From Nitrospirota bacterium (GTDB lineage: Bacteria > Nitrospirota > UBA9217): 43,180 bases of DNA. The notes beneath the pieces are model-generated. The model did not search any database. It was given only the letters and a program-made list of their open reading frames with translations, and had not been told where the DNA came from. The DNA is taken from contig JBBIMH010000019.1 in assembly GCA_037444505.1 (NCBI GenBank), forward strand, positions 4,206 to 47,385. The letters run 5' to 3'. This document shows positions 1,267 to 3,060 of this stretch, piece by piece. Each line of letters starts with the position of its first letter. Position 1 is the stretch's first letter. A program made the position numbers and the translations under genes.

Positions 1267-3060
1267 TCAGAATCTCCTATGGCACATGGAGCAGAGCTCT
1301 GATCTGGTCTTTATCCCCGCAGCGTATAGCTCCCTGCTCTGTCCTGCATGCGGGTTATGGCAGCTTGTGCATGACATGTATTTGCCGGGTCTCGCGGGGT
1401 CGCGCCTGTCCTTGGTAGGGTGCGTCTCGCCGGAGACGAAGCCCGCGACCACGTGCCTGCCGCTCGCCTTTTCGGCATGGCATGTCACGCACAGGTCCCA
1501 TGTTTTCTTTCGCGTCCATGCCGGGTTAGGGCTGGCATGGGGATTGTGGCATATCGTGCATAGGCCTGCATCCGCAGGGCCGTGCCTGAATGCGCCTGAA
1601 AACATGTCCTGGTGGCACTTCGAGCATGTCTCGAGGAGTGTAAGCCCGGCCCTGCCGGGGCTTAAGGGATCGAAGACCCTCCTAAGCTCTTTTTTCCCCT
1701 CCTTGTACGAAATACTGGTATCATGAGGGACATCGTCTTTGGAGGTTTTTTTCAGAACATAGAAGAGTGTTTCGTTGAAATCCCCGCTCCTGTCGCCTAT
1801 GCTCCATACGAGCTCTCCTTTTTTGACGACAGGCTCCTTGGACAGCCCTGCGAAGTAGCCGCTGCCCTTTAGATACTGAAAGCTTTCCGGCAGCCTCTCT
1901 ATGATTTTAAGACCCTTCACCGAGGGCCCTCGAGAATACGAAATGCTTATCGCTACTTTTTCCCTGTCCTTCAGCACCGGAAGGTTGCGGCTGTTCTTTA
2001 TCTTGACGTCCTTGGGATGGACCACTATCTCGATGCGGTTATTCAACTCCCTGCTCTCTTTCGTGGTGTTTGGAACCTTGGGGAGCCTGCTTCCCATCCC
2101 GACCGCGGTGATGCGCTTAGGAGAGATTTTATATGCCTTGAGCAGCCCTGCGATCGCCTGGGCCCGGGCCGCCGTAAGCATATTGTTGTTCTTGAATACC
2201 TTGCTCTTTACAGGTCTGTTGTCCGTATGCGCCTCTATGCGTATTCTGTCGGTCTGGTTATGCATCGCGTACTCTATCAGATCCCTGAATATCTCGCCCG
2301 CCTTCTTCTTGGATATAGAGAGCACGGCTGTGCCGCGCTTAAACAGGGCGTCGGCCTGAAAGGTGAAGCTCATCGGCTCGACAGGCATGGTCGTCTTCGT
2401 AACCTTCCATGGATCATATGATACGAACTGATATTTATACGGCTCCAAGTCGGGATTGTGGCATGCGAGACAGTTCCAGACGGCGGCAGGGCCGTGTATG
2501 TAATCTCCCGTGGGTACGTTCCGGTGGCATGTGTAGCAGAGCACGTCCTCGGCCCTTAGATGAGCGGCGTCGTCAGGTCCGGCATCCATCCTGTGGCAGC
2601 CGGAGCAGACCTCCTCCTGCTCTTTGGAATGAAACGGCTCTGATGAAAAATCCTTAGGCGCTGGGATGAATGGAGAAAGTCCTGCGCTGTAGACCGTTAT
2701 CTGCCGTGCGGACGTCTGCGTGAGATTCTTCTTTTCGTCCGCTGCCGCAAAGGTCTTGATCGTGATCTTATTGATGCCGGGCTCGAGCGCAATACCCTGG
2801 ACGGCATGCCTGCCTGTGGATGGATCGATGAAATCGGACCGGTATCCGTCGGTAGAGACCTGGAAGAAGGCAGTTCCGGACCAGTCATGCGCTGGATCAA
2901 TGACCACATTGACCCTGGTACCGACAATGGAATTGTCCTTTGGATAGAGGACGGGTATATCAGACTGTTCCGAAGATACAGCCGCTCCGGCGATGAAACT
3001 TACCAAAATGGGTATTGTGATCCTCGCAGAGAATGTCATTATCCACTCGGGTTTCGGCAC
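1267..3060 (-). CDS. Octaheme c-type cytochrome with inserted OmpA/MotB-like peptidoglycan-binding domain and DUF11-like domain (start may be ATG at 3039)
   Basis: Signal peptide; 8 CxxCH motifs (CSGCH, CYTCH, CLACH, then CSKCH, CTICH, CVTCH, CTSCH, CSMCH); OmpA-like motifs ADALF..., IRIEAHTDN, LTAARAQAIA, ITAVGMG, NNRIEI; DUF11-like IIERLPESFQYLKGS...LVWSIG. Confidence 0.88.
   Translation of the reverse strand: MPKPEWIMTFSARITIPILVSFIAGAAVSSEQSDIPVLYPKDNSIVGTRVNVVIDPAHDWSGTAFFQVSTDGYRSDFIDPSTGRHAVQGIALEPGINKITIKTFAAADEKKNLTQTSARQITVYSAGLSPFIPAPKDFSSEPFHSKEQEEVCSGCHRMDAGPDDAAHLRAEDVLCYTCHRNVPTGDYIHGPAAVWNCLACHNPDLEPYKYQFVSYDPWKVTKTTMPVEPMSFTFQADALFKRGTAVLSISKKKAGEIFRDLIEYAMHNQTDRIRIEAHTDNRPVKSKVFKNNNMLTAARAQAIAGLLKAYKISPKRITAVGMGSRLPKVPNTTKESRELNNRIEIVVHPKDVKIKNSRNLPVLKDREKVAISISYSRGPSVKGLKIIERLPESFQYLKGSGYFAGLSKEPVVKKGELVWSIGDRSGDFNETLFYVLKKTSKDDVPHDTSISYKEGKKELRRVFDPLSPGRAGLTLLETCSKCHQDMFSGAFRHGPADAGLCTICHNPHASPNPAWTRKKTWDLCVTCHAEKASGRHVVAGFVSGETHPTKDRRDPARPGKYMSCTSCHNPHAGQSRELYAAGIKTRSELCSMCHRRF

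Follow-up and report, generated by a model that had tools for sequence, protein, structure and literature searches.

Can a module that would bind the cell wall be carried in the middle of a chain of hemes without breaking that chain, and what would it do there? The question is raised by a gene in a stretch of 43,180 nucleotides of DNA from an uncultured, sulfur-cycling Nitrospirota bacterium (GTDB lineage Bacteria; Nitrospirota; UBA9217; GenBank assembly GCA_037444505.1, contig JBBIMH010000019.1, positions 4,206 to 47,385), referred to here, at its full length, as the window. The gene (1267..3060; this and the other window features described below are on the minus strand) encodes an octaheme c-type cytochrome in which an OmpA-like domain and a DUF11-like domain are inserted between hemes 3 and 4. 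To our knowledge, diffusing carriers and the porin-cytochrome conduits of Shewanella and Geobacter are the only well-described means by which electrons cross the cell wall and the 20-nm periplasm. The comparisons reported here make it probable that the protein is a periplasmic octaheme wire with its own non-covalent peptidoglycan anchor, carried on a module that loops out of the wire.

Architecture of the octaheme cytochrome

The open reading frame (ORF) has 597 codons from a GTG; the ATG at 3039, giving 590 amino acids, is the likely true start, since the database copy of the protein (P0002) has 590 amino acids and begins there. CXXCH motifs are found at residues 152, 175, and 197, and then at 479, 501, 524, 564, and 590, and all 16 cysteines of the protein lie within these motifs. 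A preliminary description made from the sequence alone had reported three hemes, a long heme-free stretch, and five hemes, and this is the arrangement found, with about 260 residues separating hemes 1-3 from hemes 4-8. The protein is predicted to be periplasmic, because residues 8-30 (2971..3039) read as a Sec-type signal peptide without a lipobox cysteine, as do the N-termini of homologues. Next is an N-terminal beta-sandwich (residues ~33-126, 2683..2964), recognized from AlphaFold2 strands with pLDDT values of 80-92 and from invariant columns. It is followed by heme module A (hemes 1-3, 2446..2631), with the conserved His144 and His189, by the insert (residues ~214-474, 1639..2421), delimited by alignment and motif spacing and missing from orthologues of other phyla, and by heme module B (hemes 4-8, 1270..1638), delimited by its motifs and by a PDB sequence match of residues 475-573 to the MtrA chain 6r2q_A. 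The protein belongs to the Paired_CXXCH_1 family (PF09699; 93 bits against a cut-off of 20.6, over four stretches) and also matches the doubled CXXCH model TIGR01905 (75.3 bits, cut-off 25.2). In an AlphaFold2 model built from 80 sequences the mean pLDDT is 76.5, with 90-97 in the insert and 43-79 in the heme parts.

His85 of the N-terminal sandwich (window about 2806-2808) is invariant in the clade of insert-bearing proteins, and many insert-free orthologues have a cysteine, or in some cases a histidine, on the same strand (L032, L038, L040, L050, L058, and L064). These residues suggest that the N-terminal Ig-like domain may supply an axial heme ligand and that a His/Cys-ligated heme may occur in sulfur-cycling lineages.

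The OmpA-like domain

The preliminary description had recognized an OmpA-like domain at about 2014-2370, and both profile and structure searches bear this out. Residues 239-340 score 51.7 bits (E=1.1e-13) with the Pfam OmpA model PF00691, whose gathering cut-off is 27.2, and the same model is precomputed for most homologues of the octaheme protein. NCBIfam models of the MotD, TssL, and MotB C-terminal domains cover residues 230-349 (2014..2373) with E about 1e-19, and sequence matches in the PDB are to domains of MotB, PomB, TssL, OprF, OmpA, and YfiB. A Foldseek search with the AlphaFold2 model returned domains of MotB, PomB, OprF, OmpA, TagL, and TssL (targets 3s0y, 3wpw, 5u1h, 3td3-5, and 5m38) with E about 1e-8 and TMt of 0.62-0.86, which identifies the alpha/beta fold of MotB and OmpA. 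The domain is thus an OmpA/MotB-like domain of the peptidoglycan-binding type.

Residues of note in the domain are Asp280, Arg299, and Arg342, the first two being those from which binding is predicted. The motifs AHTD (278-280) and LTAARA (295-300), whose retention had been pointed out in the preliminary description, are present; in alignment with the Escherichia coli OmpA precursor, their Asp280 and Arg299 fall on D262 and R277 (the YTD and ERRA residues), which we take to be the counterparts of D271 and R286 of Acinetobacter baumannii OmpA. The accessible part of PMC6572160 describes diaminopimelate as bound by the latter two conserved residues. Among 76 full-length homologues, Asp280 and Arg299 are both retained in 68; E276 and R342 are found in all 76, and the OmpA signature of E276, H278, and R342 is found in 75-76 of them. 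These residues point to binding of peptidoglycan by the inserted domain.

The DUF11-like domain

The remainder of the insert (residues ~360-465, 1666..1983) is probably an Ig-like beta-sandwich, as judged by profile search, hhalign, and modeling, and a DUF11-like identity had been proposed for it. Pfam returned no family for residues 349-474 at E<=10, including DUF11 (PF01345). A profile made from 13 copies of the domain and searched against 1.84 billion representative sequences matched 571 proteins at E<=0.001, and the top matches outside the cytochrome family are proteins of 1,000-7,000 amino acids with 4-29 matching stretches each. When eight of the matches were scanned with Pfam, all five non-cytochromes were DUF11-repeat proteins (E 4e-35 to 7e-127), and the other three were fragments of the octaheme cytochrome family. 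An hhalign comparison of the profile with one DUF11 protein gave 94% probability with E=9.5e-8, and the pattern LPxG..Y..GS...P...L.W.LG is common to both. The proposed identity is therefore retained as remote homology: on these profile comparisons the domain is DUF11-like, but not a member by Pfam's own model.

Structural comparison is less specific. The domain modeled alone has a pLDDT of 71, and its Foldseek matches are Ig-like sandwiches of the Cna, pilin, and adaptin-ear kinds (E about 2e-4, TM 0.5-0.59), a common fold. VIA gave Z values of 8.4-10.6 for the same model, no DUF11 structure was identified among the rows of these structure searches, and ESM Atlas matches to residues 346-476 (scores 0.75-0.80) are leads only.

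The insertion site and the heme chain

The position of the insert is defined by orthologues without it. These proteins of ~330 amino acids have the same N-terminal domain and eight CXXCH motifs, and are found in Desulfocapsaceae, Desulfuromonas, Geobacter, Campylobacterota, Binatia, Methylomirabilia, and other Nitrospirota. Their motif spacing is 23, 22, (22-23), 26, 23, 39-41, and 26 residues; the spacing in parentheses, between hemes 3 and 4, was found in 33 of 35 insert-free ORFs taken from genome contigs. On alignment with these forms, the insert comes to lie between hemes 3 and 4 (residues ~214-474), in the linker where the preliminary description had put it.

The conserved histidines outside the CXXCH motifs in the insert clade are H85, H144, H189, H493, H508, H536, H547, and H571. 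None of these eight, which equal the hemes in number, lies within the insert, so no heme ligand need come from it. Together with the spacing of the insert-free forms, this is consistent with a looped-out insert and an eight-heme chain that would be complete without it, as had been suggested earlier. A related proposal fared less well. Heme 3 does read CLACHNPD, with hemes 5 and 7 as CxxCHNPH, but the idea that aspartate replaces the distal histidine because of the insert was ruled out: insert-free orthologues also have no histidine at this position, and within the clade it is D, E, T, or S. The alignment indicates that NPD at heme 3 is a family trait unconnected with the insert.

Homologues and the integrity of the junctions

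The gap between hemes 3 and 4 is 279-325 residues in 77 of 82 database matches, the window's own protein included, and in these 77 the other spacings are fixed at 23, 22, gap, 22, 23, 40, and 26. The remaining matches are four with a gap of 33-64 residues and one truncated protein (P0076). P0101 is an N-terminally truncated member with both insert domains. Names, where the database has any, do not go beyond "predicted CXXCH cytochrome family protein."

The preliminary description knew of no characterized cytochrome of this architecture. A search of CC-licensed PMC articles and bioRxiv preprints, supplements excluded, found no description of an OmpA-like domain within a multiheme cytochrome; PMC11475568 contains no occurrence of OmpA, peptidoglycan, or NHL, and in PMC13442872 OmpA-like anchors are handled as separate proteins. 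The claim of novelty holds to that extent, but the architecture is present, unnamed, in more than 70 public protein clusters, and is uncharacterized rather than unseen.

An assembly chimera or a mis-joined ORF would also produce such a fusion, and the preliminary description had named a chimera as a concern. In the likely source run (X1), short Logan contigs of depth 5-7 meet at 2399-2419, near an insert junction, and leave 1000-1076 and 1588-1604 uncovered; the breaks at 2399-2419 and 1588-1604, close to both junctions, could be due to low coverage or to a co-occurring variant. Against a chimera, two hot-spring metagenome runs each yielded a single contig (of 15.7 and 22.2 kb) that spans 1000-3300, and with it both junctions, at about 92% identity; all seven indels between these contigs and the window are outside the octaheme ORF. 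The two contigs may not be mutually independent, because both show identical differences. The uninterrupted architecture is also found in the 77 database matches, which come from several sources, and in 19 other genomes of the window's family. The probability of an artifact is negligible on this evidence, and a chimera is regarded as ruled out.

Origin, loss, and selection

The history of the insert was examined in a tree of 67 rows, comprising the window's protein, 25 other insert-bearing proteins (every third), and 41 insert-free proteins; 50 insert-bearing homologues (P0068 among them) and the truncated P0076 were left out. The insert residues were removed, the model was LG+G4 with a quick search, and the tree was rooted, by assumption, among the other phyla. 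The insert-bearing rows all group in a single clade (SH-aLRT 100), within which six insert-free rows occupy four or five positions. The insert trait changes five times on this tree, and the starred branches force at least three changes. The nested insert-free forms have linkers of 33-64 residues, compared with 22-23 in the outgroups, and one of them (P0079) keeps the first ~35 residues of the insert; because of these longer linkers and this remnant, the nested forms fit deletions. The simplest reading of the tree would be one gain followed by several losses.

One locus, L028 (3974..5377 of that locus, plus strand, 467 amino acids), encodes a natural form whose hemes 3 and 4 are separated by the DUF11-like domain only, the OmpA-like domain being absent. 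Since its long branch arises within the insert clade, a stepwise gain by way of a DUF11-only intermediate is unsupported.

Sampled species genomes were searched with an insert profile at E<=1e-40. Of 301 Nitrospirota genomes, 20 have the insert, all of them in the window's family; none of the 237 sampled from 33 other Nitrospirota families gave a match at this threshold. Within the family it occurs in 20 of 64 genomes and 11 of 19 genera, as one copy each. In three related genomes (G007:C489:6039-6401, G005:C27:11165-11524, and G023:C35:10549-10911) another multiheme cytochrome ORF of ~500 amino acids has a match that crosses a single in-frame TAG; the counterparts in G022 and G016 have no such codon.

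Selection was estimated from five unsaturated pairs among four related loci. The ratio dN/dS is 0.13-0.32 for the OmpA-like domain, 0.12-0.49 for the DUF11-like domain, and 0.11-0.24 for heme module B. By these estimates the insert is under purifying selection.

Gene cluster, regulation, and host

The octaheme gene is part of a conserved cluster in the order putative heme-sensor kinase, sigma-54 regulator, 13-heme cytochrome, octaheme cytochrome, NHL1, and NHL2. The partner cytochrome directly upstream (3214..4545) has a Sec signal, 13 CXXCH motifs, one CX4CH, and one CX3CH; the CX4CH is near the N-terminus (residue 32) and the CX3CH near the C-terminus (residue 431). NHL1 (157..1167) is an NHL-repeat beta-propeller lipoprotein whose lipobox cysteine is conserved in homologues. 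The gene of the second NHL beta-propeller lipoprotein is outside the window, at about 3566..4312 of locus L098 (minus strand), and contains a masked stretch, which appears as an X run in the translation and leaves the sequence incomplete. In every sufficiently long locus of the Nitrospirota clade the genes stand in the order 13-heme, octaheme, NHL1, NHL2, and the pair of 13-heme and 8-heme genes is conserved across phyla. NHL genes also adjoin clade members that lack the insert (L017, L029, and L030), so the insert is not required to accompany NHL genes. A predicted complex of the insert with NHL1, run without controls, scored 0.00, which speaks neither for nor against a contact. The cluster and its immediate surroundings contain no porin gene; the ORFs from the kinase to beyond NHL2 are all assigned to other families.

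The 13-heme gene is preceded, at 63-76 nucleotides, by a sigma-54 type -24/-12 element (GGCAC-N5-TTGC, 4608..4621), which is the only match in the window. The element is also found upstream of the 13-heme gene at 55-86 nucleotides in six of eight insert-clade loci (L020, L021, L022, L024, L025, and L026), and in none of 27 other loci. Further upstream are the genes of a sigma-54-dependent response regulator (4762..6144) and a sensor histidine kinase (6151..7989), the latter probably with an over-extended start that runs into pyrD. The periplasmic sensor region of the kinase has one CXXCH motif, CAYCH, at about 7186-7200, and exactly one CXXCH is also found in kinase orthologues of 10 related loci, which suggests that a heme-based redox sensor kinase may drive the sigma-54 regulator.

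The cluster is flanked on one side by pyrimidine biosynthesis genes and on the other by genes for HEAT and HD-domain proteins. The pyrimidine block (7626-18721) encodes dihydroorotate dehydrogenase and its Fe-S subunit, the large and small subunits of carbamoyl-phosphate synthase, dihydroorotase, and aspartate carbamoyltransferase. In L020, L025, L026, and L029, the 13-heme gene has divergently oriented OmpA-like neighbors upstream, on the opposite strand, with one or two such stand-alone ORFs per locus and about 220-280 amino acids in each; these adjoin both insert-bearing and insert-free octaheme genes. The host genome (1.69 Mb, 87% complete) has dsrA (586 bits, above the cut-off) and dsrB.

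Possible functions of the insert

If the insert is an anchor, the protein would be a Sec-exported octaheme wire of paired CXXCH units, similar to MtrA and DmsE, behind an Ig-like domain. In a single family of Nitrospirota with dsrAB, the OmpA-like and DUF11-related module would have entered the surface loop that joins heme 3 to heme 4, and it would project from the heme core with the eight-heme chain and its ligands left intact. The OmpA-like domain could then bind peptidoglycan diaminopimelate non-covalently through the Asp280/Arg299 pocket and hold the wire, with the partner cytochrome and the NHL assembly, at the cell-wall layer. Such an assembly might act as a stationary relay between inner-membrane donors and partners on the outer-membrane side, replacing a diffusing carrier.

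Two other functions of the module have to be weighed against anchoring. It could be a docking or scaffold module for a protein partner, such as the NHL lipoproteins, the 13-heme cytochrome, or another envelope protein, or for a surface polymer, with peptidoglycan binding being vestigial. Ig domains of the DUF11 type are characteristic of envelope and adhesin-like proteins, the two insert domains are similarly constrained, and the eight homologues without the aspartate, the arginine, or both still keep a folded module, all of which would suit docking; however, the pair is kept in the other 68, the OmpA signature is nearly universal, and NHL genes are found equally beside the insert-free forms. 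We consider docking unlikely as the main role. Alternatively, the insert could be a passenger cassette tolerated in a permissive loop, with little functional effect and lost at random, as its patchy distribution, its several independent losses and one partial loss within the clade, and the orthologues of many other phyla that work without it might suggest. A passenger would not be expected to have dN/dS values comparable to those of the heme modules, conserved ligand-binding residues, or a fold predicted with such high confidence, nor to be kept across 11 genera at 42-65% protein identity, and this explanation is correspondingly improbable.

An anchored heme wire accounts better for these features, but several observations weigh against it. 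The aspartate, the arginine, or both are lost in 8 of 76 homologues, and the spread within the family is uneven. The whole insert has been lost at least three to five times, and its OmpA part once, with the gene and its cluster kept; some lineages can thus dispense with the module. Confidence is low for the heme modules of the AlphaFold2 model, and none of the listed runs holding the octaheme gene is an RNA run. Deletion of cytochrome genes of clusters in Desulfovibrio ferrophilus, likened to the present one by their gene content, left Fe(III) oxide reduction unimpaired, according to the accessible part of PMC9769857.

If the protein is anchored as proposed, electrons would cross the periplasm along a fixed relay instead of on diffusing carriers, and a heme wire that brings its own peptidoglycan anchor would add a third solution to this crossing. 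Such a wire would also be unusual in having taken up two folded domains midway along its heme chain with the chain left unbroken. A more specific proposal, that this is the first multiheme cytochrome bolted to peptidoglycan and forms a stationary, wall-embedded section of a trans-periplasmic conduit with NHL lipoproteins instead of a porin, is put forward only tentatively and is itself rather doubtful. The sister lineages with insert-free or DUF11-only forms are natural comparison sets for the effect of anchoring. The cluster points to a widespread, unstudied pairing of 13-heme, 8-heme, and NHL proteins in sulfur- and metal-cycling anaerobes, and the protein, whose function we infer, is relevant to work on extracellular and periplasmic electron transfer.

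Comparison with known systems

The nearest relatives are the insert-free octahemes, which resemble the window's protein in their N-terminal sandwich, their eight CXXCH motifs, a 13-heme gene directly upstream, and an NHL gene that is often nearby. They differ in having no OmpA-like and DUF11-like module, and are also uncharacterized as far as the searches show. The MtrA and DmsE decahemes, known from MtrCAB of Shewanella, are likewise Sec-exported linear wires of paired CXXCH units. The octaheme protein is not a member of the DmsE/MtrA family by TIGR03508 (52.9 bits against a cut-off of 192.2), has eight CXXCH motifs compared with ten hemes, and adds an N-terminal domain and the insert. As its cluster has no beta-barrel porin gene, it also does not belong to the porin-cytochrome conduits of the MtrCAB or Pcc type. 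A link to a selenocysteine pentaheme polysulfide reductase, described in the accessible part of PMC13510729, was considered and dropped, that enzyme being a different protein.

By gene content, the window's cluster resembles the D. ferrophilus clusters DFE_0448-0451 and DFE_0461-0465, in which the accessible part of PMC9769857 describes multiheme cytochromes and NHL genes with no apparent porin, in a sulfate reducer. The adjacency of NHL and multiheme cytochrome genes is the same in the window; that part of the article mentions no OmpA-like insertion in the D. ferrophilus clusters. The two insert domains each have relatives in other settings. DUF11 (PF01345) occurs as repeats in giant envelope proteins, whereas the insert has a single divergent copy inside a cytochrome. 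The domains of OmpA, Pal, MotB, PomB, TssL, and YfiB have the same profile, fold, and Asp/Arg pair as the inserted domain; however, OmpA-type domains form the end of membrane-anchored proteins, while here the domain is inside a soluble multiheme cytochrome, between heme motifs.

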